From Fibrobacteria bacterium (GTDB taxonomy: Bacteria > Fibrobacterota > Fibrobacteria > UBA5070), in the NCBI GenBank assembly GCA_035913415.1, contig JAMIIV010000207.1:23498-87497 (forward strand): 64,000 bases of DNA. The letters run 5' to 3'. The notes beneath the pieces are model-generated. The model was not told where the DNA came from, made no database searches, and saw nothing but the letters and a program-made list of their open reading frames with translations. Position 1 is the stretch's first letter, and each line of letters begins with the position of its first letter. This document shows positions 12,350 to 56,173 of this stretch, piece by piece. The position numbers and the translations under genes are program-made.

Positions 12350-12819
12350 TCCCTCCAGGTCTTGAGCACTTGGTGGCTGATTTCCTGGACGGGAGTGTCC
12401 TTGCGCAGGTAGTTGGCCGCTCCGATGTCGAAGCAGTTCTCGACCGTCATGCGGTCGGTGACCGAGGTGAGCATGATGACGGCGATTTCCGGACAGATCT
12501 CCAGGATGGCCGGCAGCGCTTCTTCCCCCGACATCTGGGGCATGTTGATGTCCAGCAGGATCACATCGGGCCGGTGTTCACGGACCGCCTCGATGGCTTC
12601 CTTGCCGTTTTTCGCTTCGGCGGCGATCTCGAACCCGGCCCGCGCCAACACGGCCTTCATGAGCATGCGGATGTGGGGCTCGTCGTCGGCCACCACCACC
12701 TTGGGCAGGAGCTGCTGGTCGGGGGGCTCCGGGGGGGCGACTGGTGCTGGCGTGGAGGGCGTCGGGGAGGCAACGGGCACCTGCACCTCCGCCGCCTTTT
12801 TGTCTCTTCCCCAGTTCAT
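12322..12819 (-). CDS. Response regulator, CheY-like receiver domain only
   Basis: Receiver motifs: VVVADDEPHIRMLMK, phospho-acceptor region ILLDINMP, and a conserved K in IMLTS...K. It has a P/A-rich N-terminal extension. ATGA overlap with the upstream kinase stop. Confidence 0.8.
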   Translation of the reverse strand: MNWGRDKKAAEVQVPVASPTPSTPAPVAPPEPPDQQLLPKVVVADDEPHIRMLMKAVLARAGFEIAAEAKNGKEAIEAVREHRPDVILLDINMPQMSGEEALPAILEICPEIAVIMLTSVTDRMTVENCFDIGAANYLRKDTPVQEISHQVLKTWREWTEGEVQE

Positions 12820-14021: not shown

Positions 14022-14120
14022 GACTCCCCACAGGAAACCATCCGGGAGTCCGAAAGTCAATGCTCGCAACGGGATAGCAGGTTTCCATCCACCCCCCGTG
14101 GCAGGCTATCTTGACCGGTC

Positions 14121-39856: not shown

Positions 39857-40861
39857 TCAGGAGGCGGTAGCGTCCAGGCCCTGATACAAGCGCCGGACGG
39901 CGTCTTCCAGCGGCGGATCGACCAGCGTGAGGTCGTCGATGTGGCACGACGCGGCGAGCCGTTCGAGCACGTCGTGGAGGCTTCCCCGCTCCAGATCCAG
40001 CTCGAACTCGCGGCGGTCGCCGGTATCGCGCGAAAGCTGCAGCAGTCCGGGCATGAAAAAATCCGCCGGCAGGTCCTTGCTTCTCAGACGGATGCGCTTG
40101 CGCTCGCCCCAACGCGAGCGCAGATCGTCCAGGCCGCCGTCGAACCCGATTTTCCCCTTGTCGATGACCACCACTCGCCGCGCCAGATGTTCGATGTCGG
40201 AGAGGTCGTGGGTGGTGAGCAAAACCGTGGTCCCCTGGCGGTTGATCTCGGCCACAAAGGACCTGATGCGGTCCTTGGCCTCGATGTCCAACCCGATGGT
40301 GGGCTCGTCCAGGAACAGCAGCGGCGGCGCGTGCAGCATGGCCAAGGAGAACTCGCAGCGCATGCGCTCGCCCAGCGACAGGCTCCGCACCGGCTGCGTC
40401 ATGGTCCGGGAAATGTCGAGGAGCTCGACCAGCTCCCCCAGACGACGGTCGTAGTCGGTACGGGCGATGCCGTGGATGGCCCGCGCCATGCGGTAGGCGT
40501 CCTGGGCGGGCACGTCCCAGACCAGTTGCGATTTCTGTCCGAAGACCGCCCCCACGTGGCGCACGTACTCCTGACGGTCGTTCCACGGCACGAAACGCCC
40601 CAGGGCCGTCACGGTTCCTCCCGTGGGATGCAGGATTCCCGACAGGATCTTGAGGGTGGTGGACTTGCCGGCTCCGTTGGGCCCCAGAAACCCGACCAGC
40701 TCGCCCTGCTCCAGGTCGAGATCGATGCCCGAGACCGCCTCCACGGCGTCGAAACGGCGATGCACCAGGCTGGCGAGGGTCTCGCGCAATCCCGACCCGC
40801 GGCGGAACACCCTGTAGGTCTTCGCCAGTCCTCGGACTTCCAGGGCCTTGGGCATGTTCAT
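39857..40861 (-). CDS. ABC transporter ATP-binding protein (ABC-2 subfamily)
   Basis: Walker A GPNGAGKST, signature LSLGERMR, Walker B LLFLDEPTIGLD. ATGA overlap with the upstream permease. Confidence 0.8.
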   Translation of the reverse strand: MNMPKALEVRGLAKTYRVFRRGSGLRETLASLVHRRFDAVEAVSGIDLDLEQGELVGFLGPNGAGKSTTLKILSGILHPTGGTVTALGRFVPWNDRQEYVRHVGAVFGQKSQLVWDVPAQDAYRMARAIHGIARTDYDRRLGELVELLDISRTMTQPVRSLSLGERMRCEFSLAMLHAPPLLFLDEPTIGLDIEAKDRIRSFVAEINRQGTTVLLTTHDLSDIEHLARRVVVIDKGKIGFDGGLDDLRSRWGERKRIRLRSKDLPADFFMPGLLQLSRDTGDRREFELDLERGSLHDVLERLAASCHIDDLTLVDPPLEDAVRRLYQGLDATAS

Positions 40862-41658
40862 CCTCCCGCGCCGACCAAGCGGCGCAGCAAACGGTTCCAG
40901 GTCGTCAGGGCCAATGCCAGCAGCACCACCACGCTCACGACGGCCGTCCAGATTCCGTCGACCGAGCGTCCCAGGAGCGAGGACGCCGGAAGCACCGCGA
41001 AGGCCGCGAAGGGAAAGCCCGCGACCCCGAGGGCACGCAGCCGGGGAGGGAGGATCGTGGGCGGAAATTGCCCCAACGAAGCCATCGTCTCGAAGATCTC
41101 GTAGACGCGGAAGTTGCCCACCCACACGATCAGAAGCGACGACATCGCCACCGCCGAGGCGAGGAACAGCAGGACCGAAAGCGCGAACAGAAGCGCGAAT
41201 CCCGCCAGGGCGGCCGCTCCCGGCAGCTCCATCCCCTGCAGGCACCAGACCGCCAGGCCCACGCCCCCCATCAGCTTGCCGAGGTCCTCGGCGTCGAAGG
41301 CCCGCACCACGCTCGACTGGAGGGGATGGCGCGGCAGCAGGAGCAACAGTTCGAAAGTGCCCGCGCGGACCATCTCGGCGGTGTTCCACACCATGCCGCC
41401 GAACAGCGGGTAGGCCACACCCTTGGACATGAGGAACACGGCCTGCACCAGCAGGGCCTCGCGCACCGTCCAACCCGGAAAGGCCAGACCGTTGCCGTAG
41501 AGAAGTGCCGTGACCAGGGTGGGAACGAACTCGATTCCCATCATCACCAGGACGCTCGCCAGGAAATCGAATCGATCGGACAGGCGCACAGCCAACCCCA
41601 AGCGTATGCCTTCGAGATGGAGCGCCACATGCCCCTTCCAGCGTTCCAGGGGGTTCAT
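40858..41658 (-). CDS. ABC-2 family transporter permease
   Basis: Start at MNPLERW. Six predicted TM segments. ATGA overlaps on both sides. Confidence 0.65.
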   Translation of the reverse strand: MNPLERWKGHVALHLEGIRLGLAVRLSDRFDFLASVLVMMGIEFVPTLVTALLYGNGLAFPGWTVREALLVQAVFLMSKGVAYPLFGGMVWNTAEMVRAGTFELLLLLPRHPLQSSVVRAFDAEDLGKLMGGVGLAVWCLQGMELPGAAALAGFALLFALSVLLFLASAVAMSSLLIVWVGNFRVYEIFETMASLGQFPPTILPPRLRALGVAGFPFAAFAVLPASSLLGRSVDGIWTAVVSVVVLLALALTTWNRLLRRLVGAGG

Positions 41659-42470
41659 CCTCCCGCTGCCAGGAAACGACGGCGCGCCAGGGCATCCAGG
41701 ATGGTCAAGCCCGTGAGCGAAGCCGCCAGGACCAGCGCCTGCAACCCCACAGCCTGGGCGGGCTCGACGATCCGGCCGAGGATTTCGACGTGCCCCGTCC
41801 CCAGCCGCAGCGGGATGTACAGAGCCCACGGATAGGGCGTGAGGAACAACAATGGCTGGACCGCGGCGGGAAAGAACGAAAGCGGCAGCATGGCCCCGCC
41901 CAGCAGGTCGCGGACCAGCACCACGCAACGGCGCACGCCTTCGGCCCGCACCAACCAGAATCCGACCAGTCCCGAGGCGTAGTTCACCACGAACATCAGG
42001 AGGAAGCCCAGACCTGCCGACAGCAGGAACCAGACGGGATGGTGCGGCAACAGGGGACGACCGAGGAAGAGCGAGACGAGCACCCAGACGGGGACCGCCT
42101 CGACCAGCAGCGCCAGGGCGCGGTGCCCCAGCTTCTGCGAAAGGGCGTACCAGGCGTGGTGCATGGGCTGCAGCAGGTGGTTCGAATACGCCCCCGTACG
42201 CACCAGCATCTGCAGGTTCCAGTCGGCGAAATCGAAGACGGCGTAGCCGACCAGGATCGCCAGGCCCGAGTAGGTCACGAGGTCCACCACATCCATGCCG
42301 GCGGCGCGGCTCCCGGTTGAGGCCGTGGAGGTCCAAATCCAGGTCATGACGAGAAAGCGCAGAGGGCCCGTGAAGAGCGAGACCGCCATGTGCGAGCGAA
42401 AGGCGGCCCACTCCTTCCAGGTCACGGCGGCGATAGCCAGCATCGCGCCGCGTCGTGGCACGAGGCTCAC
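41655..42470 (-). CDS. ABC-2 family transporter permease (second subunit)
   Basis: Multiple TM segments. Overlaps the next permease start. Confidence 0.6.
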   Translation of the reverse strand: MSLVPRRGAMLAIAAVTWKEWAAFRSHMAVSLFTGPLRFLVMTWIWTSTASTGSRAAGMDVVDLVTYSGLAILVGYAVFDFADWNLQMLVRTGAYSNHLLQPMHHAWYALSQKLGHRALALLVEAVPVWVLVSLFLGRPLLPHHPVWFLLSAGLGFLLMFVVNYASGLVGFWLVRAEGVRRCVVLVRDLLGGAMLPLSFFPAAVQPLLFLTPYPWALYIPLRLGTGHVEILGRIVEPAQAVGLQALVLAASLTGLTILDALARRRFLAAGG

Positions 42471-43300: not shown

Positions 43301-43933
43301 TCAGCCGCCCCGCACCATGGTGGCGTTGTCGAGAATCCGCACACCCGACCAGGCGGGATCACCGACCACATCCACCAACGCGGACGCCACCTCACGATCG
43401 CGCACGGGACGCCAGGCGGCGGGCACCAGGCCTCGTACGGGGCCCAGGCAACGGCGCGCCAAGGCTTCGCCGAACCGGAACTCCGCGCGATCCCCCAGCA
43501 GCAACGACGGACGGGCGATAGCCACGCGCGGAAAGCCCAAGGCGACCACGGCCTCTTCAGCCCGCCCCTTCACACGGTTGTAGAAGATCACGGACCGGGA
43601 ATCGGCCCCCGTCGCCGAGACCAGAGCAAGCGTCGTGCAACCCATCCCCCGGGCCCGACGGGCGCACTCCACCACCAGCTCCAGATCGACCGCTTCGAAC
43701 GCCTCCCGGCTGCCGGCCTTGGTGATGGTCGTTCCCAGCGCGACGAAGAGCGCCTCCGAACGCCAGAATCCGTCATCTGGATCGGGGATCCGGGCGGAGA
43801 CCACGGTCTCGGCGCGCCCTGGAAGCGCCATGTCGCGACGCACCCAGGCCTGCACCGAACCGCGACGGCCCAGGGATTCCAGAATTCTCAAACCCACCAG
43901 GCCAGAGGCCCCCACGACCGAAGCATTGTGCAT
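43301..43933 (-). CDS. NAD(P)H-binding (atypical SDR/HTATIP2-like) protein
   Basis: N-terminal VVGASGLVGLRILESL is a Rossmann GxxGxxG motif. Confidence 0.6.
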   Translation of the reverse strand: MHNASVVGASGLVGLRILESLGRRGSVQAWVRRDMALPGRAETVVSARIPDPDDGFWRSEALFVALGTTITKAGSREAFEAVDLELVVECARRARGMGCTTLALVSATGADSRSVIFYNRVKGRAEEAVVALGFPRVAIARPSLLLGDRAEFRFGEALARRCLGPVRGLVPAAWRPVRDREVASALVDVVGDPAWSGVRILDNATMVRGG

Positions 43934-44008
43934 GGAGGGCAATATCCATTTTCGAGGGCGTTCTCGGCTGGGAAGGGCTTCCCATCGGCGGAAAGAAGGC
44001 CGCGGGAA

Positions 44009-44923
44009 TCAGCCTGGGTTCGGGGAGGAGGACATGGCGGAGCATCCCGCATCACTTGGCTTCCGCGGCCACGGAGAGGGTATGCGCTCGAGAATGCCCT
44101 CGCCGTAGAGCCCCGCCAACCCCAGGGACGGGACATGGACGTAGCCGATGTGGCAATGGCAGGTCTCGCGCGGGCAGGCCTCCTCGCGCAGCAGGCTTGC
44201 CAGATCCTGTCGGAAGATGTTCCCCATGGGCTCGCGCACGAAATGGCAGCGATGCAGATCGCCGTTGCCCTCGATGGCCACCACAGCCGAGCCCGCGGGA
44301 CAGGCCAGACCCCGTGACGGGTAGTGGTGGAGATTGTGCCGGAAGAACGGATCGATGGATTCGATCCAGGCGATCTCTTCGGCTGCGTAGTAGCCCGCAT
44401 CGCGTTTGAAGGCGTTCACCCAGAGGTAGGTGGACTCCGGCAGGGAGCTCCGCAAATTCCCGATCGCCGCGAAGTGCTCCCGCAGCCCCACCACCCCAAC
44501 GCTGTGGGAGATCCCACGGCGCGCCAGCTCTCCGCACCGGCGCAGGAACACGTCCTCACGGGCCTGCCCCGGATGGAAGGTGGCCCAGAACGCGGCTTTG
44601 GACGGCTCGAGGCCTTCGGTCCAGGCGGTGTCCCACGACAGGTTCGTCTGCGCAGCCACCTTCGCCACGTGGGGACGACGGGACAGTTCGACCATGGCCC
44701 TGCGGTACCAAGGATGGATCAGGGCCTCCCCGTAGGGGGTGAACAGGATGTCGAAGACCCAGCCCCGGGAGCCCTGTTCGTCGATCCAGGCCAGGAACCG
44801 ATCCACCGCGGCACGGTCGCGTGCGCGGTCGGCGGCGTCGTGGCGCGTCTTGGAGAACGGGCAGTAGGGACACTCGAGGTTGCAGTCGGAGACATGGCCC
44901 CGGTAGAGGATCTTCAGCCTCAT
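44009..44923 (-). CDS. Radical SAM protein, STM4011-family-like
   Basis: CNLECPYC radical-SAM cluster motif at residues 15 to 22. ATGA overlap with the upstream HemN-like gene. Confidence 0.7.
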   Translation of the reverse strand: MRLKILYRGHVSDCNLECPYCPFSKTRHDAADRARDRAAVDRFLAWIDEQGSRGWVFDILFTPYGEALIHPWYRRAMVELSRRPHVAKVAAQTNLSWDTAWTEGLEPSKAAFWATFHPGQAREDVFLRRCGELARRGISHSVGVVGLREHFAAIGNLRSSLPESTYLWVNAFKRDAGYYAAEEIAWIESIDPFFRHNLHHYPSRGLACPAGSAVVAIEGNGDLHRCHFVREPMGNIFRQDLASLLREEACPRETCHCHIGYVHVPSLGLAGLYGEGILERIPSPWPRKPSDAGCSAMSSSPNPG

Positions 44924-46251
44924 CGCGGCGGAAGCTCCCGCATCCGCTCGAGCACTCTCCGGGACACGAACCAGGCCCCCACACCGTCGGAGAGCGCCAT
45001 GCCGCGCCCGGTCAGCCGCAGGCGGTCGCCGTCGAGCACGGCAAGGTCCAGGCGGAGCAGTTCCGGAAGATCGGGGAAGTCCTGGAGAGCGTCCGTTCCG
45101 AACAGCCCGCGGTAGCGCGGCAGATCCAGGCCTGCGGACTTGAGGACGGACTTGATCAGGAATCGACGTTTTCTGTCATCGAGCGTCAGGCGGATCCCGT
45201 GGTCGGCCCGCGCGAAGTCCGCGGAGCCGCGCGCCAGGAAATCGCCCAGGATGACCTCGACCTCGTCCCGCCCCACGGCCCAATCCGTGGAGTAGTGCAC
45301 GTCGCGGGTATAGGATCGGGCCCCGGCCCCCAGGCCCACCATCCCGTCCTCCTGGCAGGAATACTCGGACGCCGCCGTCGGGGCGGTTCCCGGACGACAG
45401 AATCTGCGCAGCGAGTCCTGGACGTAGCCGGCTTCCAGCAGAACGCCACGCCCCGCCTCCAGCAAGGAGTCGATGCGCACCCCTTCCGGATCGTGCCGTC
45501 CTTCGCGCCTGTGGAGCGCGGTCAGGGGCCGCACGTACAGGGGATAGAGGAACAGTTCCGTGGGCGCATGGCGCAAGGCCGCGGCCACGCTGGCGCGGAA
45601 CGAGTCCTCGGTCTGTCCGCGCATGCCGTAGATGAGATCGATGTTGAACGCGGGAAACCCCTCCGCGGCCACCGCGTCCAGGAGGTTGTCCAGGGCGCGA
45701 TCGGGTCTCGGCCTGCCGAGCAGGCGGGCCTCGTCGGCGTCGAAGCTCTGGACCCCCAGGCTGAGTCGCTCCACTCCCGCCTGGCGCAGGAACCGGATCT
45801 TCCCGGGTGTGAGGGTGTCCGGCGACGCCTCGAAGGATCCCCCCCGGGCGGGATCGATCCCGAACACGGTACGGAGCATGCCCACCAAGCGCTCCAACTG
45901 GGCCGTATCCAGAAGGCTGGGGGTGCCGCCTCCGATCGCGTAGCCCGAGAAGGAGGCCCGACCGATGGACTCCCGCACCGCCGCCGCCTGCCTCTCCAGG
46001 GCCCCCAGATACCGATCGACCATTCCTTCGGAGGGCCGCGAGACGGACAGCAGGTTGCAGAAGGAGCATTTGCTGGCGCAGAAGGGGATGTGCGCGTAAA
46101 GGTACAGGGAGTCCTTCGGCTCGTCCCGCCACAGGCGCTCCAGCGGAACGCGTTCATCGAAAGGACGGTAGGCCGTCTTGTGGGGATAGGAGTAGAGGTA
46201 GGCCCAATCCGAACGGTCTCCGGACAGAAATTGCTCAAGCGACGGTGTCAC
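44920..46251 (-). CDS. Radical SAM protein, HemN/HemW-like (STM4012-family-like)
   Basis: YLYAHIPFCASKCSFCNL and GGGTPSLL motifs. Putative GTG start at 46249..46251, overlapping the sulfatase-like gene stop. The 5' part of the 752-aa ORF overlaps the upstream gene and was rejected. Confidence 0.65.
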   Translation of the reverse strand: MTPSLEQFLSGDRSDWAYLYSYPHKTAYRPFDERVPLERLWRDEPKDSLYLYAHIPFCASKCSFCNLLSVSRPSEGMVDRYLGALERQAAAVRESIGRASFSGYAIGGGTPSLLDTAQLERLVGMLRTVFGIDPARGGSFEASPDTLTPGKIRFLRQAGVERLSLGVQSFDADEARLLGRPRPDRALDNLLDAVAAEGFPAFNIDLIYGMRGQTEDSFRASVAAALRHAPTELFLYPLYVRPLTALHRREGRHDPEGVRIDSLLEAGRGVLLEAGYVQDSLRRFCRPGTAPTAASEYSCQEDGMVGLGAGARSYTRDVHYSTDWAVGRDEVEVILGDFLARGSADFARADHGIRLTLDDRKRRFLIKSVLKSAGLDLPRYRGLFGTDALQDFPDLPELLRLDLAVLDGDRLRLTGRGMALSDGVGAWFVSRRVLERMRELPPR

Positions 46252-47048
46252 GGCTGCTGGGCCCCATGGACAAATTCCGCGTAAGGCACGTTCCAGACGC
46301 ACTCGTGGGCGATCCGATGCCCCGTGTACCCCCCGTCGCCGTAGGCGGTGCCGTGGTCGGAGAGGAACAGGCACAAGGTGCGGCCTCGCGCCCGCAAGGC
46401 ATCCATGAGGGGAGGCAGGCAGCCATCGACATAACGCAGCGCGGCGGCATGGGATTCCATGGAATCTTCGGTGGCGCCTTCCAGGTGGTGCCGATTCGGC
46501 TGGTGCAGCGCCGAGACGTTCAGGAACAGGAAGACCTTGCGGTCGCGGCACCGTTCCAGGATTTCCAGAGCTTTGTCCACCTGGTACTCCGTCGAGCGGG
46601 GCTCCGTCACCCCGAAGCGCGGCTCCCAATGGCTTTCCTGGAACAGCCCGGGCAGGACCTGCGACAAGGCGTTTTCCTTCTTGAAGAACCCCACGCCCCC
46701 GATACATGCGGTGTGGTATCCCCGTTCGGCGAGGCCCGACACGATGTCGGGGGCGTCCAGGACCAGGGTGCGCGAGCCCGAAGTTTCGCTTCCGGAAAAG
46801 CGCAGGGCGAAAAGCCGCTCGTGGCGGCCCGGCGCGGCGGGCGTGGGGAGGAACCCCGCGAAGAAGGAACAGTGGGATGCCCACGTGAACGATCCCGGCG
46901 CATGGCGCCCTTCCCAGGCCTCCACCCACCTGTGCAGGTTCGGAGTCCGTCCGGCCTCCATCTCGGAGACCGCCACGTCCAGGCGCAGGGTGTCGAAGGT
47001 GACCATCAGGATGTCGTGGGTGCCCACGATCGCGTTCATGTCGAGCAA
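46248..47048 (-). CDS. Sulfatase/alkaline-phosphatase-superfamily hydrolase (STM4013/SEN3800-family-like)
   Basis: N-terminal LMVTFDTLRLD metal-binding region and the sulfatase-like fold motif FLSDHGTAYGDGGYTGH. Confidence 0.65.
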   Translation of the reverse strand: MLDMNAIVGTHDILMVTFDTLRLDVAVSEMEAGRTPNLHRWVEAWEGRHAPGSFTWASHCSFFAGFLPTPAAPGRHERLFALRFSGSETSGSRTLVLDAPDIVSGLAERGYHTACIGGVGFFKKENALSQVLPGLFQESHWEPRFGVTEPRSTEYQVDKALEILERCRDRKVFLFLNVSALHQPNRHHLEGATEDSMESHAAALRYVDGCLPPLMDALRARGRTLCLFLSDHGTAYGDGGYTGHRIAHECVWNVPYAEFVHGAQQP

Positions 47049-47701
47049 GGAAGGATCTCCTCGAGTTGGAGGATGCCGATGATGGCCGCATGGGGAAGCG
47101 GAAACACGCGGCGATGGAGGGGGTCCACGTGGACCGTTCCCATCCCCAGCGCCCGTGCCGGTTGGATGTCGCGCACAAGGTCGTCGCCCACCATGATCGC
47201 GGACGTCGGGTAGGCGCCTTCCAACGCGCGCAGGAACAACCGGGGATCGGGCTTCTCCATGCCCTGCTCGCCCGAGATCCAGACCGATTCGAACAGATCG
47301 TCCAGATCGGCGTAAGACATTTTCCGTCTCTGCGTGTCGCCCGCCCCGTTGCTGACCAGGCGCAACGTGTGGCGCGTCGAAAGTCTCTCGAGCATGGCGC
47401 GCACCCCAGGCAGAGGCCGCACCCGATCCGGGAGTGTCGTGTGGTGGCGTCGCAGGTCGGACATCGAACCTCCCAGCTCGGGTACCAGCTCCAATGCCCG
47501 CGTTAGGAAGGCGTCGCGATCGGTCCGCCCCCGGTCGTCGGCCCGCACCAGATCGGCCAAGGCGCGGCAGCCGCGAGGGGAATCGGGATCCGTCCCGGTC
47601 TGGACCAGGAGTTCCCGGAACAGATCATCGAAGGCGGCGTCGCGATCCAACAAGGTGTTGTCGAGGTCCAGCAGGAGCAGCGAAATCCCGGACTTTGTCA
47701 T
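47036..47701 (-). CDS. HAD-superfamily hydrolase (subfamily IA)
   Basis: Motif I LLLLDLDNTLLD. Motif III/IV region IMVGDDLVRD. ATGA overlap with the upstream gene. Confidence 0.75.
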   Translation of the reverse strand: MTKSGISLLLLDLDNTLLDRDAAFDDLFRELLVQTGTDPDSPRGCRALADLVRADDRGRTDRDAFLTRALELVPELGGSMSDLRRHHTTLPDRVRPLPGVRAMLERLSTRHTLRLVSNGAGDTQRRKMSYADLDDLFESVWISGEQGMEKPDPRLFLRALEGAYPTSAIMVGDDLVRDIQPARALGMGTVHVDPLHRRVFPLPHAAIIGILQLEEILPCST

Positions 47702-48819
47702 GGGAGGTCCGTCTTGGTGCCAAGCCGGCTAAGCTCCAGCTCCCAGGGATCCAGGCCTTCGTGTTTCAGGCCGGGGAGCAGATCGCCGAAAGCGTTGGCC
47801 TCCAGCACAAGAGGCCGCACCGGTGCTTCCGGAGAGCCGGCGGGAACGACGACGTCGAGCCCCGCGTACAGACTTCCAGGCAACCGCTCCAGGGTCTCTT
47901 CGACCACGCGCTCCACGGCCTCCCACACCCCCCGAGACAGACCGAGCCCCTCGGGGTCCAGGCGGTGGTTGCCCAGATGGAGGTTCGTCATGGGGCCACG
48001 GGAGAGTCGCGCGATCCGGTGCGCAGGTTTGCCCGCCACCCCGAGGACCCGCAGATCCCAGGCCATGCCTCGAAACGACGGCTTGGGGATCCAGGGTTCG
48101 ACGAACGCCCCTTCCGAGAAGAGGAAGTCCAGCACCTGCGTGATGCGATGCGGGTCGCGGTATTCCCGAAGCCGCAGGGAGTTGTAGAAGCGCGGTTGTC
48201 CGTCGGGGTCGGCCATCTCCAGAGTGGTGCGCAGCACCTGCCTGCCGGTGGAACGCTGCGCGCGCCAGGCGGCCACCCCGCTGGCCGACGAGGCCGCGGG
48301 CAGTTTCACGAAGACTCCGCACGCCCCCGATTCCTCGGCCCACCGCGAGAATTCCGCGGACGAGCCGAAAGTCCCCAGGGTGGGGGGCGCGAGATCGCCC
48401 AGGAGGCGCTTGAATCCGGGTTTGTCGAACATCGCGACGATGTCCGAGGGGGAATTGAACCAGGTCACCCCGCACACCTCCCCATCGCGTTCCAGCGACT
48501 CCATGTAGGCGCAAAAGCCACGAAACCAGGCCGAGGGATGCAACAGGCGCCCCCGCTCCTCGGGGATGCTCCCGGCCTCGGGAATCCCTCCGAGAGACAG
48601 AATCTGGCATTCCACGCCATGGTTCTCGCCCGTGGATTCGATCCGCACCACCGTCCCCGACCGCACGTGTTCCCGGAGGGTGGTCCGGCCCGCGAGCAGG
48701 TCGGAATGCGACACCACTCTGGCCGGATTCCATCCACGCCGGCACACCGCCCCCTGGAAGAGGGACAGCCGGCGGTTTTCCGGGTTGGCCAGGACCAGCA
48801 GGTCGGGAGATGCGCCCAA
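47698..48819 (-). CDS. ATP-grasp-like protein (STM4014-family-like)
   Basis: ATP-grasp fold features: GVFVKLPAASSASGV and LVLEANAFGDL. There is no in-frame ATG; a TTG at 48817..48819 just after the WGR-LRR stop is proposed. The start is uncertain. Confidence 0.5.
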   Translation of the reverse strand: MGASPDLLVLANPENRRLSLFQGAVCRRGWNPARVVSHSDLLAGRTTLREHVRSGTVVRIESTGENHGVECQILSLGGIPEAGSIPEERGRLLHPSAWFRGFCAYMESLERDGEVCGVTWFNSPSDIVAMFDKPGFKRLLGDLAPPTLGTFGSSAEFSRWAEESGACGVFVKLPAASSASGVAAWRAQRSTGRQVLRTTLEMADPDGQPRFYNSLRLREYRDPHRITQVLDFLFSEGAFVEPWIPKPSFRGMAWDLRVLGVAGKPAHRIARLSRGPMTNLHLGNHRLDPEGLGLSRGVWEAVERVVEETLERLPGSLYAGLDVVVPAGSPEAPVRPLVLEANAFGDLLPGLKHEGLDPWELELSRLGTKTDLP

Positions 48820-48824
48820 GAAGC

Positions 48825-49901
48825 CTATTCCGTGACGGCGGGGTAGCGCCAGGCGTCTTCGCCTTCGCCATCGGCCTCTTGTTGGTCGGAGACGTCGATG
48901 TTCCGCCCCGTGGCCTTGAACTCCTTGACCATGGCGTCCGAGAGGTAGTGGTAGTGCAGATCGAGCCGCTTCAAACGTTGGACACCGGGGGAATCCAGAA
49001 GGGCGCGACCTCCAACGTCGGTGAGCGTGCCCTGCGACAGGTCGAGCACGTCGAGCTGCCCGAGGACTTCGGCCCCGGCGATCGCCGCGGCGATTTCGTC
49101 GGCGATTTCGCTGTCGACCAGTCCCAGGCTCCGCAGCGAAGGAAACAAGCCCTTGCTGAAGAACGGGCGCAGGTCGTCGAGGGAGCCGTCGAAGCCGTAT
49201 TCGTCGACACCCAGATACAGCTCCAGATGCTGGAGCGCCGGCAGGCGCGCCGCCGCCAGCAGATGGAGAATGACCTTGGGCAATCCACCGCAGCGGATCA
49301 CGAGCTTGGTCAGCGAATCGTGGGCGATGGGGTCGCGGCTGAGCACCAAGCTGCTCGAACCCTGGATGCGCAAGGATTCCAGACCCGGGAAGGCCGCCAG
49401 GACCCCCGTGTAATCGGCCTGGATGATCCAGGAGATCTCGCATTCCTCCGAGTCCATGTCTCCGACGATGATTTCCTTGAGGCCCGGCAGGCGCGCCGCG
49501 TGACGGCAGAGCAGATCGAGAGCGGCCTGGGGGGAATTCTCCTGCGGCTCCTCCCACGAGGCGATCACCAGGGAATCGACGCCGCTGGCCCCATCGCTTT
49601 CCAGGAACGCTTCCATCTTCGACAGGAGGGTCTTGCCCTCTTCCGCTTCGTCGTAGCTTACCGCGAGGCGTCGCGAGATCTTCTTCTCGCTGGCCTGGGC
49701 CACCTCGACGTAACCCTTCTTGACCTTCTCGGCGACCAGCTTGTCGCGCTCCTTGGTCGCCTTTTCTGGCGATTCGCAGGTGGTGGTCTTGGCCTGCCCT
49801 GCGGTCCCGATCCGACCGAAGGTGACGGTGAACGCGGACCCTTCCAGTTCAATCTGCCAGAATTTGTGCGAGGTGCCGTCTTTGAATTCGAGGTAGGTCA
49901 T
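48825..49901 (-). CDS. WGR-domain plus leucine-rich-repeat protein (STM4015-family-like)
   Basis: Start at MTYLEFKDGTSHKFWQIELEGSAFTVTFGRIG, a WGR domain. C-terminal LRR-like repeats (LxxLxLxxN/D patterns such as LKRLDLHYHYLSD). Confidence 0.7.
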   Translation of the reverse strand: MTYLEFKDGTSHKFWQIELEGSAFTVTFGRIGTAGQAKTTTCESPEKATKERDKLVAEKVKKGYVEVAQASEKKISRRLAVSYDEAEEGKTLLSKMEAFLESDGASGVDSLVIASWEEPQENSPQAALDLLCRHAARLPGLKEIIVGDMDSEECEISWIIQADYTGVLAAFPGLESLRIQGSSSLVLSRDPIAHDSLTKLVIRCGGLPKVILHLLAAARLPALQHLELYLGVDEYGFDGSLDDLRPFFSKGLFPSLRSLGLVDSEIADEIAAAIAGAEVLGQLDVLDLSQGTLTDVGGRALLDSPGVQRLKRLDLHYHYLSDAMVKEFKATGRNIDVSDQQEADGEGEDAWRYPAVTE

Positions 49902-50102
49902 CGGGATCGGCCTTCCGGAGGGGGATAAGGAGGATCTGGCTGAGGCCGCCGCTGTCGAGAACGAGCGACTGTTGCAGCCGGGGTCAGGGACCTCGAATAT
50001 AGGCTCGCGCACACCCGCATCGAGAGCCCTGGTGCCCGCGGCCGAAAACGGGCTCACCGCGCCTGGAGGAGGGCCCGAGCCCTTGCCGAACCGAGGATGG
50101 AA

Positions 50103-50717
50103 TCAGGCGCTGCAGGGAGTGCAATGGTTGTCGACCCACGGGTGCCACCCGCCGTCGAACCAGACGAAGTACATGCGTAGCTGGTCCCACCCCTTGGCGA
50201 CAAAGACGACCTGCATCACCCGCCAAGGCTTGGGCACGGGAAGCCACGGCACCACGAACTCAAGGTCGCCATCCTTGCGCCAGTGGCCGAATTTCGGGAG
50301 ATCGCGGGGCTGGACCGGATCCCAGAAAAAGCCCTGGTGGCCGCGATACGGGCCGGCGTCGTCACAAGGATTCTTCACGGCGGGGATACCCCGACGGATG
50401 GTGATTCGGGTGTCCGGCGGTATGACCTCCGTTCCGTCCATGATATCCTTCCCCACCTGCGTCGACGGGTAATCCAGAACACAGCTCGCCCCCGGGTTGT
50501 CGGCCGTGCGGTAGGGAAGTTTGGGATGAATCCACCGACTGGCCTCCTTGCGGCTTCGGCGGTAGGTCTCCAGGTATTCCTTCAGAAACTGCGGGAAGAC
50601 CGAATCGGGGTCTCGCCCGATCGAGTCCCGCAGGACGATGCGTGGTTCGGGATCGCGCGGAGCCACGATCGCCGTGTCCGAGGCTCCCGCCAGCAACAGG
50701 AGAAGAGAGAGGATCAT
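50103..50717 (-). CDS. Small secreted hypothetical protein
   Basis: Start at MILSLLLLLAGASDTAIVA, a signal peptide. The ATG overlaps the rtcR stop (ATGA). Cys-containing. WHPW near the C-terminus. Confidence 0.45.
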   Translation of the reverse strand: MILSLLLLLAGASDTAIVAPRDPEPRIVLRDSIGRDPDSVFPQFLKEYLETYRRSRKEASRWIHPKLPYRTADNPGASCVLDYPSTQVGKDIMDGTEVIPPDTRITIRRGIPAVKNPCDDAGPYRGHQGFFWDPVQPRDLPKFGHWRKDGDLEFVVPWLPVPKPWRVMQVVFVAKGWDQLRMYFVWFDGGWHPWVDNHCTPCSA

Positions 50718-52327
50718 GGACGCCTCGGGGAGGAAGAGTCGTGCGCTTCGGACCAGGAAAGTCCGAAGCGGCCAAGGTACTTGCGCAGCCGATCGGAATC
50801 GTTGGGGCTTTCCTTGCGCTCGCGCGAAACGGAGAACAGGCATCGCCCCGCCTCTGCCATCGTGGCCGACGAACGGCAGACTCCCAGCACGTGCGCCAGC
50901 TGCACCCGATCGAACTCGTCCAGCCGTCCCACGCGGGACGGGACGACGGATTCCGTCACGGGATCGCCGGCGCGGATCCACGAGCGTTCCAGACGTTCGA
51001 TTTCTTCGTCCACGTTCGGCTTGGTGATGCGGCCGTCCGACAGCAGCGCCATGCGCGTCACCGCCGCGGCCAGGTCGCGGAAATTCCCCTTCCACGAAGC
51101 ACGCGCCGAGGTCCCCCACTCCAGGAAGCGCTCGCGCGCCTCGCGGGTGATCGAAACCTGGCGTCCTTCGCGTGCACGCAACCGTTCCAGCTCGTACTCC
51201 AGATTGGGCTCCAGGTCGGCCGGCCGGTCGGCCAGTCCGGGCAGGGCGAAGGTCCACAACTGGATGCGCGCCAGGAGGTCTTCGCGGAATCGCCCGCGCG
51301 CCACCTCGGCCCCCAGATCCTTGTGCGATCCGGCCAGAAGCAGGAAATCGCTCTCGACTTCCCGATCCGAACCCACGGGGCGAAAGCGTTTCTCTTCCAG
51401 GGCCACCAGAAGCATCGCCTGCTCTTCCAGCCCCAGCTCGCCGATCTCGTCCAGGAACAGGATCCCCCGGTCGGCCGCACGCAGATAACCGGCCCGATCC
51501 CCTACCGCCCCGGTGAAGGCTCCTTTCACGTGCCCGAAGAGGGCCGACATCGCCCCTTCGCCGGCCAGGGTGGCGCAATTCACCGCGACGAACTCGCCGG
51601 CCACCAGCCCCCGCTGGCGGCGCAGTTCGTGGATGCGCCGCGCCAGGCTCGATTTGCCCGATCCGGTGGGTCCACCCAGCAGGATCGGATCGCGCGACCG
51701 GGAGGCCACGACTTCGATGCGCTCGATCAGGCGGTTGAACGCCTTGTCGCGGGTGCGGATGCCGTCCTTGAGGAAGTCGCGCCGGTCGCGGATGTCTTCG
51801 CGGAAGCGCGAGGCGATGCGGTCGTACCTGGACAGATCGAGATCGATGAGGGAGATGCGGCCGGGCAGCGATTTGTCGTTGCCCTCGGGGGGACTGGTCT
51901 GCAGGAGACGCCCCGGCAGGAAACGCGCCTCGGTGAGCAGGAACAGGCAGATCTGGTGGACATGGCTGCCCGTGGTGATGTGCACCAGCAGGTCTTCCCG
52001 CGCAGGATCGAAGGCCAGGCGGCGCGACAGGTCCAGGAGCACCGAGTAGACCGCCTCGAAGTCCCACGGATCGTGGGCGGGCAGGATCTCGCAGACCACG
52101 TCCATCCCGGGGCGCAGTTGGCGCAGATCGGAGGCCACCACCTCACCCAGCTCGCGGAACTTCTCCTGGAACAGCAGATGGTAGCGATCGAAGGGAGGGT
52201 CGTCGTGCCGGGCCAGATCGACCGTGGGACGCCACCGATCCCAACGTTTACGCCCCATGCCCCCGTCGAGGACCGTGCCGAGGATACCGATGCCCACGAG
52301 GGGCCTGGAAGTCGTTTTGCGCGTCAT
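50714..52327 (-). CDS. rtcR: Sigma-54-dependent transcriptional regulator RtcR (CARF domain, AAA+ and HTH)
   Basis: Start at MTRKTTSRPLVGIGILGTVLDGG. Strong similarity throughout to E. coli RtcR as recalled, including Walker A GPTGSGKSSLARRI and the GAFTGA motif. Confidence 0.85.
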   Translation of the reverse strand: MTRKTTSRPLVGIGILGTVLDGGMGRKRWDRWRPTVDLARHDDPPFDRYHLLFQEKFRELGEVVASDLRQLRPGMDVVCEILPAHDPWDFEAVYSVLLDLSRRLAFDPAREDLLVHITTGSHVHQICLFLLTEARFLPGRLLQTSPPEGNDKSLPGRISLIDLDLSRYDRIASRFREDIRDRRDFLKDGIRTRDKAFNRLIERIEVVASRSRDPILLGGPTGSGKSSLARRIHELRRQRGLVAGEFVAVNCATLAGEGAMSALFGHVKGAFTGAVGDRAGYLRAADRGILFLDEIGELGLEEQAMLLVALEEKRFRPVGSDREVESDFLLLAGSHKDLGAEVARGRFREDLLARIQLWTFALPGLADRPADLEPNLEYELERLRAREGRQVSITREARERFLEWGTSARASWKGNFRDLAAAVTRMALLSDGRITKPNVDEEIERLERSWIRAGDPVTESVVPSRVGRLDEFDRVQLAHVLGVCRSSATMAEAGRCLFSVSRERKESPNDSDRLRKYLGRFGLSWSEAHDSSSPRRP

Positions 52328-52417
52328 TCTATCGCACAGGATAGATCCTATGCCTTGCGATATCAATGCACCCCGATCCGGGCACACGTTTCTCCGACGG
52401 ATCCGCGCGACAACGAT

Positions 52418-52433
52418 TGGCACGCCCTTCGCA
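52418..52433 (+). promoter_or_regulatory. Sigma-54 (-24/-12) promoter TGGCAC-N5-TCGCA
   Basis: ttGGCACgccctTCGCA differs from the consensus TGGCAC-N5-TTGCA at one position. It lies divergent from rtcR and about 20 nt upstream of the tRNA-like RNA, as expected for an RtcR-dependent promoter. Confidence 0.5.
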
Positions 52434-52453
52434 CTTGAAGTGGAATACCGAAA

Positions 52454-52671
52454 GGGGAGGTAGCTCAAACGGAAGAGCACCGGAAAAACGTTGGACAACG
52501 GCACTGTAACAGGCACCGCGAACCGCAAGGTCGCCGGGCAGGGTTGCGGAGGCACCTATAGCGGCCTCGAAGGGTCATCACTCCCCCGAGGTGGGTGAAG
52601 CAGCAAGGGAAGCGCGTTTCCCAAGAGCCTGGCTTGTCGCGGCGATGCGGGTTCGATCCCCGTCCTCTCCA
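52454..52671 (+). ncRNA. tRNA-like structured RNA (about 218 nt) at the 5' end of the rsr operon; candidate Y-RNA-like or processed leader
   Basis: The 5' end GGGGAGG-TA-GCTCAAACGGAAGAGC gives a 7-bp acceptor 5' strand and a canonical D-arm. The 3' end GCGGG-TTCGATC-CCCGT-CCTCTCC-A gives a T-arm and a complementary acceptor 3' strand. An approximately 165 nt insert sits where the anticodon arm should be. Confidence 0.4.
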
Positions 52672-52703
52672 CTTTCTCGAATTCCACAGCAAGGATCATC
52701 ACC

Positions 52704-54275
52704 ATGCCCAATCTCGAACTGTTCAAGACCATCGCGGGCAGACTCATCCCCGCCACCGATACCCGCAACGCAGCGGGCGGCGTTGCGTACACCCGCTCCC
52801 CCAAGTCGGAGCTGGCCCAGCTGGCGATGACCGGATGCCTCAACGGCACCTTCCATGCCCAGGCCGAAGTGCAACTGGAGGCCATCCTCAAGCGCACTGC
52901 GGAGATCGATCCCGCCTGGATCGCCAAGCTGGCCCTGGTGGCCCGCAAGAAGGGCCACATGAAAGACGTTCCCGCCCTGCTGCTGGCGACCCTCGCCGTC
53001 CGCGACCGGGACAGCGCGGCGACCGCGTTTCCCCTGGTGATCGACAACGCCCGGATGCTGCGGACCTTCGTACAGATCGTCCGCTCGGGAGCCGCGGGAC
53101 GCAAGTCCTTCGGCTCGGCGCCCCGGCGCTGGATCCGGCAGTGGCTGGAATCACGGACTCTCGAACAGCTCCTGGACGCTTCGGTAGGCAACCAGCCCTC
53201 GCTCGCCGACATCGTGAAGATGGTCCATCCCCGGCCCGACGGTCCCGAGCGCGAAGCCTTCTACGGCTGGCTCTTGGGCAAGGAGGTCGCGACGGACACG
53301 CTTCCCGAGCGGGTGCGGGCCCTGCTGGCCTGGCGCGACGGAGACCGGGAAACGGTCCCCGAAACCGCGTTCGAACTCCTGACCGATCGGCCCCTGTCCA
53401 CCGGATCCTGGGCGGCCATCGCCCGCCGCGCCGGCTGGCAGTGGACGCGCATGAACCTCGCCACCCTCGCGCGGCACGGCGTGTTCGCCGATCCGGCGAT
53501 GGTGGACCTGGTGGCCGCCCGGCTGCGGGATCCGTCTCTGATCGCCCGGTCGCGCGTCTTTCCCTACCAGATCCTGTCCGCCTGGAAGGCGGCCGGGACC
53601 GACCTCCCCTCTGTCGTCCGCGACGCCCTCCAGGACGCGCTGGAACATGCGGTAGAGAACGTTCCCGCCTTCGCGGGGAAGGTGGTCGTCCTGCCCGACG
53701 TCTCCGGCTCCATGCACAGCCCCGTCACCGGATTCCGTCCGGGTGCGAGCTCGGCCACGCGCTGCGTGGACGTCGCCGCCCTCTTCGCCGCCGCCATCCT
53801 GCGGCGCAACCCTTCCGCCACCGTCATCCCCTTCAAGGAAGACATCGTGAACCTCGTCCTGAATCCTCGCGATTCCATCAGCACCAACGCCGAGCGCATG
53901 GCTTCCGTGGGCCCCGGCGGGACCGATTGTTCGGCCCCGCTGCGGCACCTGAACCAGCGCAAGGCCAAGGCCGACCTGGTCGTATTCGTCTCCGACAACG
54001 AGTCGTGGATGGACCCCGCCCGGGGACGCTGCACCACCACCCTGCGGGAATGGGAAACCTTCCGCGCCCGCAATCCCGGCGCCCGGCTGGTGTGCATCGA
54101 CCTGGCCCCCAACACCACGGTGCAGGCGCCCGATCGGCCCGACATCCTCAACGTAGGAGGCTTCTCCGACCAGGTCTTCGGACTGGTGGGGGAATTCGCC
54201 TCCGGCGGTCTGGAAGCCGGCGCCTGGGAGACGCGCATCGAACGGGAGGGAGAACGCCTCTTGAACGCGGCGTAG
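52704..54275 (+). CDS. rsr: Ro60 ortholog Rsr (TROVE domain plus vWA domain)
   Basis: Protein-like composition across about 520 aa. The architecture recalls bacterial Ro (TROVE-like helical N-region, DVSGSM-type vWA MIDAS motif VVLPDVSGSMHSP). Confidence 0.8.
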   Translation: MPNLELFKTIAGRLIPATDTRNAAGGVAYTRSPKSELAQLAMTGCLNGTFHAQAEVQLEAILKRTAEIDPAWIAKLALVARKKGHMKDVPALLLATLAVRDRDSAATAFPLVIDNARMLRTFVQIVRSGAAGRKSFGSAPRRWIRQWLESRTLEQLLDASVGNQPSLADIVKMVHPRPDGPEREAFYGWLLGKEVATDTLPERVRALLAWRDGDRETVPETAFELLTDRPLSTGSWAAIARRAGWQWTRMNLATLARHGVFADPAMVDLVAARLRDPSLIARSRVFPYQILSAWKAAGTDLPSVVRDALQDALEHAVENVPAFAGKVVVLPDVSGSMHSPVTGFRPGASSATRCVDVAALFAAAILRRNPSATVIPFKEDIVNLVLNPRDSISTNAERMASVGPGGTDCSAPLRHLNQRKAKADLVVFVSDNESWMDPARGRCTTTLREWETFRARNPGARLVCIDLAPNTTVQAPDRPDILNVGGFSDQVFGLVGEFASGGLEAGAWETRIEREGERLLNAA

Positions 54276-54597
54276 GGCGGAGTGGAAAGGCGCGACGAAT
54301 ACCGCGGCGGTCTACACTTGGACCTGGCATCCATTCCGGAGCGCGGGGGAAGATCCCGCAGGAGCCGCAAGGCTCCCGAGGCGTCGCCAGAGGACGCACC
54401 AGGCGGCGAAAGCCGGCAGACCACGCAATCCTTGTCGCCGCGCCCCCTCCATCCTCCCAACGCCCCTGACCGGGGGCGCCCGAGACGAATACCGGACGGG
54501 AGTCCATCCTCCACCTCCGCCGCGCCGCCCCGGGAGGGGCGGCACCCCGACTCCGGGGCAGGCACCTCCCCCCACCCTTGTCGTCCTGGGCGCTCCT

Positions 54598-54705
54598 TCT
54601 TTGGCGCGGAAGAATGCTGGACGGGAATCCATTGGTCAACACCTCCGTTTGCAAGAACGGTGGTGTGGGTTCAAGTCCCAAATCCCTCCACACCTTGTCT
54701 TCCGC
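54598..54705 (+). ncRNA. Candidate small structured RNA (second Y-RNA-like element)
   Basis: Terminal helix GGCGCGGAAGA / TCTTCCGCGC enclosing about 88 nt. The enclosed region has a T-loop-like GGTTCAAGTCC hairpin (GGTGTGG...CCACACC) and a CCGTTtgcaagaAACGG hairpin. CTTTTTCC follows. Confidence 0.25.
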
Positions 54706-54750
54706 GCTTTTTCCCTTTCCCGGGGCCCTCGAGGGGGCCCCACCCCTGTG

Positions 54751-54900
54751 CCCCCCCTTATGTCGAATGCCGGACAGGTGTACATCACACGTGTCGGTGC
54801 CGGGTTCGATTCCCGGCGCGGCCACTCTTCGGCCGCGTAGCTCAGTGGTAGAGCAACCCCGCTTCGCGGGCCACTTGTCCACCCTTGTCGACATTCGGGG
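54751..54900 (+). ncRNA. Candidate Y RNA (YrlA-like) with permuted tRNA-like module
   Basis: Terminal stem CCCCttATGTCGA / TCGACATtcGGGG with a 2x2 internal loop. The interior holds a T-arm (CCGGG-TTCGATT-CCCGG), an acceptor-like stem CGCGGCC-ctcttcg-GCCGCG capped by a loop, and a D-arm (GCTC-AGTGGTAGA-GAGC). Confidence 0.5.
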
Positions 54901-54924
54901 ATACTTCCTTTGGAGACACATCCC

Positions 54925-56148: not shown

Positions 56149-56173
56149 GGGGGTTCCGGGACTCGAAAGGTAG

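Follow-up and report, generated by a model that had tools for sequence, protein, structure and literature searches.

[quoted passage not shown] A second point of reference is the STM4011–STM4015 cassette of Salmonella, a family for which curated models and a crystal structure already exist, although no function has been assigned to it. Indeed, the five NCBIfam models are of the 'hypothetical equivalog' type without a stated function and, as the original prediction had stated, no function is found in the searchable literature (ATP-grasp amidoligase surveys outside its reach may treat the family).

The window (the whole stretch of 64,000 nt analysed here) contains the STM4015–STM4014–(HAD)–STM4013–STM4012–STM4011 cassette in full. 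The original prediction had attributed the genes to these families, and this proved right: in an NCBIfam search all five models score above their curated cut-offs, namely NF038073 for STM4011 (362 bits; cut-off 200), NF006067 for STM4012 (493 bits; cut-off 380), NF038075 for STM4013 (393 bits; cut-off 250), NF038074 for STM4014 (299 bits; cut-off 175) and NF038076 for STM4015 (323 bits; cut-off 275; residues 77–358). Pfam matches comprise WGR, HAD_2, Sulfatase and Radical_SAM plus HemN_C, and both search sets agree with the earlier identification of a HAD-IA phosphatase and two radical-SAM enzymes. The predicted multi-step modification pathway of the ATP-grasp/radical-SAM kind is a reasonable reading. 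The features of the locus are the following:

48825..49901, minus strand: STM4015-family protein with WGR domain, LRR body and conserved C-terminal tail (358 aa, ATG start)
49695..49898, minus strand: WGR domain, residues 2–69 of STM4015 (Pfam PF05406, E = 2.2e-19)
48828..48866, minus strand: C-terminal tail of STM4015, EGEDAWRYPAVTE-COOH (acidic run, W-R-Y-x-x-x-x-E, stop codon next)
47698..48819, minus strand: predicted STM4014 ATP-grasp ligase (373 aa, TTG start 5 nt past the STM4015 stop)
47036..47701, minus strand: HAD-IA phosphatase, accessory (221 aa, ATGA overlap with STM4014)
46248..47039, minus strand: STM4013 hydrolase of the alkaline-phosphatase superfamily (263 aa, ATGA overlap with the HAD gene)
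44920..46251, minus strand: STM4012 HemN-like radical SAM (443 aa, GTG start, GTGA overlap)
44009..44923, minus strand: STM4011 radical SAM with Cys-rich, putative auxiliary-cluster domain (304 aa, CNLECPYC, ATGA overlap)

The six consecutive minus-strand genes that had been predicted (44009..49901) are all present in the ORF calls on the window. Their divergence from a 96% identical contig is biased towards the third codon position in all six, which marks them as real protein-coding genes subject to purifying selection, and the catalytic motifs are intact in every cassette enzyme. Start–stop overlaps, claimed for the operon throughout, are found at four of the five junctions (4 nt each; ATGA three times, GTGA once), but STM4015 and STM4014 are separated by a 5-nt gap. 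The TTG start that follows this gap is backed by homologue alignment and agrees with the description of the ATP-grasp-like gene as lacking an ATG. The placement immediately downstream of rtcR has to be corrected, as the two are separated by a 204-aa ORF (50103..50717), which begins with an ATG overlapping the TGA of rtcR, and by a 200-nt gap (49902–50102).

For comparison we used 160 loci from many phyla, 80 from genomes and 80 from metagenomes. Most of them contain the five-gene core in the same order, and the gene order in the window is that of Salmonella (STM4015-4014-4013-4012-4011). Thus, of the predicted co-occurrence of six genes, the neighbourhood check bears out the five-gene core, but the HAD gene is present in only 24/80 genome loci and in 6/80 loci from metagenomes. 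The WGR domain is found in 16/80 and 4/80 loci, respectively (~12% overall); the HAD gene and the WGR fusion are accessories, the latter marking a subclade. STM4015 adjoins STM4014 in 78 of the 80 genome loci, and the two stay together even in loci whose remaining three core genes run on the other strand or are missing within 10 kb. Bearers of the cassette include Salmonella, Bacteroides fragilis, Paenibacillus, Nostoc and planctomycetes; the family comprises ~900 sequence clusters at 50% identity, and the STM4014 family is set apart from RimK in sequence, with only 1558 matches at E ≤ 1e-3 among 1.84 billion representatives. The cassette is self-contained and horizontally spread.

The STM4015 proteins end in a conserved tail, [RK][YFW]xxxxE$, which is found in 109 of 135 LRR-cluster ORFs from the 80 genome loci and in 116 of 120 independent database homologues, 119 of which have the exact terminal Glu; in the window protein the conserved tail residues are R352, Y353 and E358. 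STM4015 paralogues without a downstream STM4014 still carry the tail, so it does not reflect a nucleotide-level constraint from the ribosome-binding site of the following gene. Each locus has one ligase for up to eight tail-bearing LRR paralogues, a pattern that suggests one enzyme serving many substrates. These tandem paralogues carry WGR, HEAT-like or TIGR02996-like N-termini. The WGR-LRR protein had been regarded as a sensor or scaffold, but is probably more than that: because its invariant Glu-terminated tail adjoins a RimK/LysX-clade ligase, it may well be a substrate or carrier of the pathway.

Structure prediction places STM4014 among the ATP-grasp ligases of the RimK/LysX/glutathione-synthetase clade. 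A Foldseek search with its AF2 model (pLDDT 93.9) gave ArgX-LysW, PsnB, LysX/ArgX-LysW-AAA and RimK as top matches, and the sequence search with STM4014 gave no match to a LysX model, RimK or a PDB entry. Five Arg residues are invariant in the STM4014 alignment (R17, R59, R257, R271 and R286). The window protein is ~30–40 aa longer than that of Salmonella and belongs to a diverged subfamily.

We propose that the cassette chemically modifies the Glu-ended tail of its own LRR protein by means of STM4014, the radical-SAM enzymes and the phospho-hydrolases, and we put the probability of this reading at roughly 0.5; that the tail is the substrate of the ligase, and all of the chemistry, we infer. 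STM4014 would activate a carboxylate of the terminal Glu of STM4015 as an acyl-phosphate and would join an amine to it (e.g. an amino acid or a phosphorylated amine). The SPASM/twitch-like STM4011 and the HemN-like, class-C-type STM4012 would then act by radical chemistry, either on the tail itself or on the group tethered to it, STM4013 and the HAD phosphatase would catalyse phosphoryl transfer or hydrolysis on a phosphorylated intermediate, and the LRR body with its variable N-terminal domain (WGR here) would carry or present the modified tail. Only tentatively would we extend this to a form of protein-templated chemistry unrecognised before, with LRR proteins as carriers or substrates whose tail is loaded by a LysX/RimK-clade ligase and elaborated by radical-SAM enzymes and phospho-hydrolases. 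So understood, the cassette may represent either a new C-terminal modification that arms LRR proteins or a pathway resembling the amino-group-carrier type with large, diversifiable carriers.

The partner enzymes can be described more closely. The PDB relatives of STM4012 are HemN (1olt, 1e-31) and the class C methyltransferase NocN (4e-30), with C58, C62, C65 and GGGTP (107–111) conserved. STM4011 contains C14-x3-C18-x2-C21 plus conserved C130, C208, C226, C250, C255 and C257; compared with the SPASM/twitch auxiliary motif (C-x9-15-G-x4-C ... CxxCx5Cx3C), the first half is present (C208-x12-G221-x4-C226) and the second half is non-canonical (C250-x4-C255-x-C257). The scored matches are weak: Pfam SPASM at E = 0.0018, below the gathering score, SkfB at E = 0.045, and CteB weakly. 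This resemblance of the radical-SAM partners to peptide-modifying enzymes (NocN/HemN, weakly SkfB/CteB) speaks for the tail proposal. STM4013 had been described as a hydrolase of the sulfatase/alkaline-phosphatase fold, and the fold is borne out (Pfam Sulfatase, NF038075), but not the sulfatase site. A formylglycine sulfatase was rejected, since there is no C/S-x-P-x-R and the nucleophile position is held by an invariant T52 with H56 (F-T-x-x-x-H), of the NPP type; in alignments T52/H56 coincide with the catalytic T-x-x-N-H of nucleotide pyrophosphatases and with the position that is formylglycine in choline sulfatase, and D16, D228, H229 and H241 are likewise invariant. The HAD protein scores above cut-off for TIGR01549 and TIGR01509. 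In the Salmonella locus, a Cof-type HAD after STM4011 replaces the HAD-IA, and in another locus (L086) a Cof-type HAD is fused to STM4011; together with the HAD-IA at the STM4014/STM4013 position, the phosphatase step thus recurs independently. Two phospho-hydrolases are hard to place in a protein-tail pathway, which counts against the tail proposal.

Among the alternatives, a small-molecule (nucleotide or cofactor) pathway, in which the WGR-LRR protein would serve as no more than a sensor or scaffold and which is tied to RNA damage via RtcR/Rsr, survives best, although we consider it unlikely. It would agree with the best sub-threshold matches of the HAD protein (CTE7 and pyrimidine nucleotidases such as YjjG), with the active site of STM4013, which resembles that of nucleotide pyrophosphatases, and with the WGR domain, as WGR domains in PARPs bind nucleic-acid ends. 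Also, rtcR precedes the cassette in the window, and in an unrelated gammaproteobacterium (L042) the cassette lies in an RNA-repair island, between RtcB/Thg1-like/RNA ligase/11 tRNAs on the one side and WYL/Rsr/YrlA on the other (roughly estimated, chance alone would yield about 0.03 loci of this kind among some 122 long ones). However, L042 is the only one of the 160 loci with Rsr/RtcB near the cassette, rtcR is found in none of them, and the WGR domain is restricted to the minority of loci given above. Furthermore, a contig 96–99% identical to the window (L082) lacks rtcR–rsr–YrlA–rtcB and keeps the cassette intact and under selection, and no sigma-54 promoter is present upstream of the operon in 49902–50102, the only good sigma-54 site (52418–52433) facing rsr. 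This alternative also leaves the invariant Glu-terminated tail unaccounted for. The link to nucleic-acid stress at which the original prediction hinted is not backed by a recurrent rtcR/rsr linkage: the adjacency is mostly incidental, the cassette stands outside the RtcR RNA-repair regulon as a rule, and rtcR is a poor starting point for studying the function of this family in general. In some lineages there may still be a link to RNA damage, given the WGR fusion and the contexts of the window and L042.

It is improbable that the pathway is RiPP- or cofactor-like, i.e. that the radical-SAM enzymes act on the tail residues Tyr and Glu, by cross-linking them or modifying them in another way, and a small product is excised, the LRR proteins being oversized precursors. 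Such a scheme would have analogies in PQQ (Glu-Tyr) and mycofactocin (C-terminal Val-Tyr), and the conserved Tyr/Phe at −5 and Glu at 0, the SPASM/twitch-like motif in STM4011, the several tandem 'precursor' paralogues per locus and the likeness of the STM4014 fold to the graspetide ligases PsnB, MdnC and CdnC are all consistent with it, but neither the conserved core nor its recurrent neighbours include a peptidase, no RRE or PqqD-like domain was detected in the cassette, and the 'precursors' are folded proteins of 280–440 aa with conserved LRR bodies. To much the same degree we doubt that the tail is a structural C-terminal cap, with STM4014 ligating small molecules like glutathione synthetase and STM4015 as a regulatory or accessory subunit. 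In the AF2 model of STM4015 (overall pLDDT 94.2) the tail has a pLDDT of 84–89 and may pack on the LRR instead of being free; a cap, however, needs no exact Glu terminus such as nearly all homologues have, and the pattern of acidic run, aromatic residue and terminal Glu parallels the tails of LysW, S6 and tubulin. Least probable is an anti-phage or conflict system with LRR proteins as diversified sensors and enzymes making an effector molecule, since its patchy spread over many phyla, the varied N-termini of the tandem paralogues, the likeness of the LRR fold to NLR and F-box LRRs in a structure search and the L042 island are opposed by heterogeneous nearest neighbours without defence enrichment (no more than 4/122 loci sharing a family), only partial domain-level matches in PADLOC-DB 2.0 (WGR_XIII 2e-6, PDC-M51A 1.5e-6), a single match in viral contigs and only 13 plasmid records, 11 of them typed as non-mobilizable.

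Modification of the tail thus remains our preferred reading. The Glu-ended tail together with a LysX/RimK-clade ligase gives this 'conserved hypothetical' operon a hypothesis that can be tested directly; if it is true, carrier-protein or C-terminal-ligation chemistry reaches a new class of proteins, and two orphan radical-SAM families gain substrates.

With the Salmonella cassette the window shares the five models, the gene order and an associated HAD phosphatase; the differences lie in the N-terminal WGR domain of STM4015, which is missing in Salmonella, in the HAD protein (type IA between STM4014 and STM4013 in the window, Cof-type IIB after STM4011 in Salmonella) and in the tail (WRYPAVTE compared with YMNAMYTE, the terminal Glu being kept). 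The closest solved structure to STM4015, PDB 2RA8 (Bacteroides fragilis Q64V53, from structural genomics; 37% identity, TM 0.78), covers a full-length WGR + LRR protein whose native sequence ends in DDDYSYPMITE and so keeps the terminal Glu, but it represents an Arg-less tail subfamily and was crystallised with a C-terminal His-tag masking the terminal carboxylate. RiPP maturation (graspetides with PsnB/MdnC; the SPASM maturases PqqE, MftC, SkfB and CteB; the class C methyltransferases NocN/TbtI) is alike in enzyme classes and multi-'precursor' genetics, whereas the cassette lacks a short precursor peptide, a conserved small ORF, an RRE and a peptidase, and its conserved site lies at the very C-terminus of a folded protein. 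Compared with the C-terminal glutamylation of ribosomal protein S6 by RimK, and with TTL/tubulin, the proposed substrate is a dedicated, co-encoded LRR protein, and four additional enzymes are present. Unlike the 54-aa zinc ribbon LysW, which ends in EDWGE and is the amino-group carrier for making lysine and arginine in Thermus and archaea, the putative carrier is an LRR protein of 280–440 aa (358 aa here) with a different tail motif, and STM4014 matches ArgX/LysX at the level of the fold, not of sequence models. The further enzymes are two radical SAMs, an AP-fold hydrolase and a HAD protein, in place of kinase, reductase and aminotransferase; there are no LysZ/Y/J/K-type enzymes, including the LysK-type release hydrolase, and as neither a release hydrolase nor a peptidase belongs to the cassette, it would make an incomplete 'carrier' system by the standard of LysW, a point against the tail proposal. 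What the cassette and LysW/LysX have in common is a partner protein encoded next door, an acidic tail that contains an aromatic residue and ends in Glu, and further enzymes of the same operon that would act on the tethered group.

The six consecutive minus-strand genes described in the original prediction are recovered by the ORF map and the minus-strand sequence, and are arranged as follows:

48825–49901, minus strand: WGR-LRR protein (STM4015), ATG start
47698–48819, minus strand: ATP-grasp-like protein (STM4014), TTG start, 5 nt past the preceding stop
47036–47701, minus strand: HAD phosphatase, ATGA overlap
46248–47039, minus strand: AP-fold hydrolase (STM4013), ATGA overlap
44920–46251, minus strand: HemN-like radical SAM protein (STM4012), GTGA overlap
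44009–44923, minus strand: short radical SAM protein (STM4011), ATGA overlap

Start-stop overlaps had been claimed for every junction; a 4-nt overlap is present at four of the five, but a 5-nt gap separates the WGR-LRR from the ATP-grasp-like gene, which indeed lacks an ATG. Against a contig of 96% identity, substitutions in each of the six genes fall mostly on third codon positions (in WGR-LRR, 22 codon changes are synonymous and 5 non-synonymous), which on sequence grounds indicates that the genes are real and under purifying selection.

In NCBIfam profile searches, all five models STM4011–STM4015 were matched above their curated cut-offs, so the proposed family assignment was right; the HAD protein exceeded the cut-off for generic HAD-IA models only. 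Pfam returned WGR, HAD_2, Sulfatase and Radical_SAM with HemN_C, and weakly Radical_SAM/SPASM on STM4011. Searching by family name or domain combination, with the comparative-genomics literature partly covered, we found no functional study of STM4011–STM4015, consistent with the earlier statement that no biochemical function is assigned to these families; the single mention found is of a sigma-54 site lying antisense within the Salmonella gene STM4013 (PMC3844500). The window copy is a further member of a known family lacking functional characterisation.

Scanning one genome per species for STM4014 gave at least 584 matches, and we analysed 80 loci from about ten phyla, scoring gene presence by tblastn with the window proteins.

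Occurrence of cassette genes and rtcR in the 80 genome loci
STM4014: 80/80
STM4015: 78/80
STM4013: 70/80
STM4012: 62/80
STM4011: 60/80
HAD: 24/80
WGR: 16/80
rtcR: 0/80

Core genes absent from some loci are mostly missing due to contig ends, and the gene order is near-constant. The pattern repeats in 80 further loci taken from metagenomes, with no rtcR, rsr or rtcB. The expected co-occurrence is thus found for a five-gene core; of the six genes predicted to form a unit, the HAD gene is accessory, as is the WGR fusion. The planctomycete core consists of two divergently oriented modules, [4015–4014] and [4013–4012–4011], and about ten loci contain [4015–4014] alone within 10 kb. Only 1,558 STM4014 matches at E≤1e-3 exist among 1.84 billion representatives, and therefore the ATP-grasp family, with about 900 clusters at 50% identity (E≤1e-30), is sharply bounded. 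In 16–17 of the 80 genome loci (e.g. L012 7455-8757 and L076 14232-15589), from planctomycetes, Chloroflexi, Deinococcus, an actinomycete and a cyanobacterium, the cassette is adjoined by an accessory gene pair not found in the window: one gene for a ~98-aa protein (MLYRHGDVLV...GEVTGHSHR) lacking any Pfam match and one for a ~340-aa LRR + DUF6745 protein.

Assignment as a defence system was rejected as unlikely: a PADLOC search of the cassette proteins gave no meaningful match, only 1 of 2.9 million viral contigs bears the cassette, and the closest flanking genes are diverse (at most 4 of 122 in one Pfam family). The cassette is also rare on plasmids.

A link to RNA repair had been suggested by the neighbouring rtcR gene, and the surroundings of the cassette in the window are those of a typical RNA-repair locus. 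The features on either side of the cassette are:

43301–43933: flanking gene, 210 aa, weak NAD-binding match
50103–50717, minus strand: 204-aa ORF, ATG overlapping the rtcR stop (ATGA), signal-peptide-like N-terminus MILSLLLLLAGAS...
50714–52555, minus strand: rtcR, RtcR model 710 bits versus a cut-off of 650
52418–52433, plus strand: sigma-54-type site TGGCACGCCCTTCGCA, best site, facing rsr
54760–54897, plus strand: YrlA-like Y RNA candidate between rsr and rtcB, 47 bits (below the Rfam gathering score of 69), E 1.8e-8

A TROVE/Rsr-like gene lies next to rtcR and is divergently transcribed, and an RtcB gene lies beyond the YrlA-like candidate, which is probably a divergent Y RNA of a poorly sampled phylum. 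As the RtcR model match begins only at residue 86 of the listed ORF (GTG at 52555; region 52300-52703), this ORF is probably over-extended; given a shorter rtcR, the sigma-54-type site would fall in the rtcR/rsr intergenic region, as a putative rsr promoter. The cassette itself does not follow rtcR immediately, as had been proposed, since the 204-aa ORF and a 200-nt gap intervene. No sigma-54-type site was found in this gap (49902-50102), which speaks against co-regulation by RtcR via a sigma-54 promoter of the cassette's own; read-through from rtcR may occur. In Salmonella, rtcBA is known to be induced under tRNA damage (PMC7790460). The 204-aa ORF has no match in Pfam, NCBIfam or PADLOC, and both it and the 210-aa gene were rejected as cassette members, being conserved only in L082, a near-identical contig. 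An ABC-2-type transporter downstream (39857-42470, minus strand; ATP-binding subunit and two ABC2_membrane_6 permeases) is likewise kept beside the cassette only there.

L082 matches window positions 38644–64000 at 96–99% identity but lacks 50910–56154, i.e. most of rtcR together with rsr, YrlA and rtcB; the 204-aa ORF, the complete cassette and ~195 nt from the 3' end of rtcR are still present. The two contigs hence differ by an indel of the rtcR–rsr–YrlA–rtcB module, the rtcR remnant looks like the trace of a recent deletion in the L082 lineage, and the cassette can stay intact without rtcR beside it. Together with the complete absence of rtcR from both 80-locus samples, this rules out a conserved rtcR/rsr linkage as a general feature, and the rtcR link of the cassette is largely incidental. 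The sole exception among ~122 long loci is L042, from a Hydrocarboniphaga MAG, where an island (1-21125) that also encodes a Band-7 protein holds the cassette between two RNA-related groups:

Side one: RtcB, AAA–M41 protease, Thg1-like protein, RNA ligase and a tRNA array
Side two: WYL (WYL-WCX) regulator, Rsr, two YrlA-like RNAs (both below gathering score) and two tRNA-Lys

Nine tandem tRNAs lie directly upstream of STM4015; tRNA arrays beside the cassette were found in this locus only. Assuming rsr in ~7% of genomes and a 20-kb window in 5 Mb, a rough estimate gives ~0.03 such loci expected by chance. The coincidence is thus noteworthy, though a single case, and may reflect shared residence in an accessory island or a lineage-specific functional link.

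Turning to the enzymes, STM4013 has the invariant residues D16, T52, H56, D228, H229 and H241. In the alignment, T52/H56 coincide with the catalytic T-x-x-N-H of nucleotide pyrophosphatase/phosphodiesterase and also fall where choline sulfatase has its formylglycine, which points to a predicted Thr-nucleophile phosphoryl-transfer enzyme and not a sulfatase: the alkaline-phosphatase fold originally proposed stands, the sulfatase active site does not. The idea that STM4011 might, like an anaerobic sulfatase maturase, make formylglycine on STM4013 is thereby removed, the nucleophile being an invariant Thr instead of C/S-x-P-x-R. STM4011 itself combines the radical SAM CxxxCxxC with six further conserved Cys (including C-x12-G-x4-C) and weakly matches the auxiliary domains of SkfB and CteB; STM4012 is equally near to HemN and the class C methyltransferase NocN. 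In L086, another cassette locus, a fusion protein of 539 aa (12886-14505) joins STM4011 to a Cof-type HAD-IIB phosphatase, and in Salmonella (L081), with the order STM4015–4014–4013–4012–4011, a Cof-type HAD-IIB gene (11760-12494) overlaps the end of STM4011. HAD phosphatases have been recruited at least twice (types IA and IIB) and fused once, which argues that a phosphorylated intermediate belongs to the cassette chemistry.

STM4015 and its LRR paralogues share a C-terminal tail. Of the 135 LRR-cluster ORFs across the 80 genome loci, 115 have Glu as their last residue and 109 fit the motif [RK][YFW]xxxxE-COOH, the exceptions being truncated ORFs or WD40 proteins with just an N-terminal domain in common. 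In 120 independent database homologues, the terminal Glu is present in 119 and the motif in 116 (consensus [DE]3-5-[WY]-R-[YF]-[PVI]-x-[VLI]-[TSG]-E), and the Glu is kept even in the distant Salmonella protein (…IYMNAMYTE) and in the protein of the solved structure 2RA8 (…SYPMITE, ahead of the tag). In about 23 loci a single STM4014 accompanies 2–8 tail-bearing paralogues arranged in tandem, and the tail is kept in paralogues not followed by STM4014. Tandem arrays of up to 8 occur in L032, L036, L037, L040, L043, L047, L056 (Nostoc/Aliinostoc), L016 and L035, with the Glu-terminated tail in all true members; the Nostoc paralogues have an N-terminal HEAT-like domain in common with neighbouring tail-less WD40 proteins, and one paralogue sits between STM4012 and STM4011. 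In the AF2 model the tail has a pLDDT of 84–89, so it may pack on the LRR body.

STM4014 had no Pfam match and a sequence-level PDB search gave only noise, and therefore we turned to structure prediction (pLDDT 93.9). The top Foldseek ranks were ArgX–LysW, the graspetide ligase PsnB, LysX/ArgX–LysW-AAA and RimK. The invariant residues K133, K172, D322, E340 and N342 fit the positions that ATP-grasp enzymes commonly use to bind ATP and Mg. In the simplest reading, STM4014 would attach an amine to the Glu that ends STM4015 (E358 in the window, where the tail reads …WRYPAVTE). We give this well-motivated mechanism about an even chance (roughly 0.5), because of the tail pLDDT, because the cassette contains no peptidase or release hydrolase and because a covariation test, pairing tail-Arg loss with STM4014 changes, isolated no contact: the Arg-less variants make up a deeply diverged subfamily in which 25 of the 55 positions invariant elsewhere are altered. 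The window copy thus offers a testable hypothesis, namely that the family as a whole serves to modify a C-terminal tail or works as a carrier system. Acidic C-terminal tails are bound, and their terminal Glu acted on, by RimK, LysX/ArgX and TTL (PMC10375531; PMC4490483).
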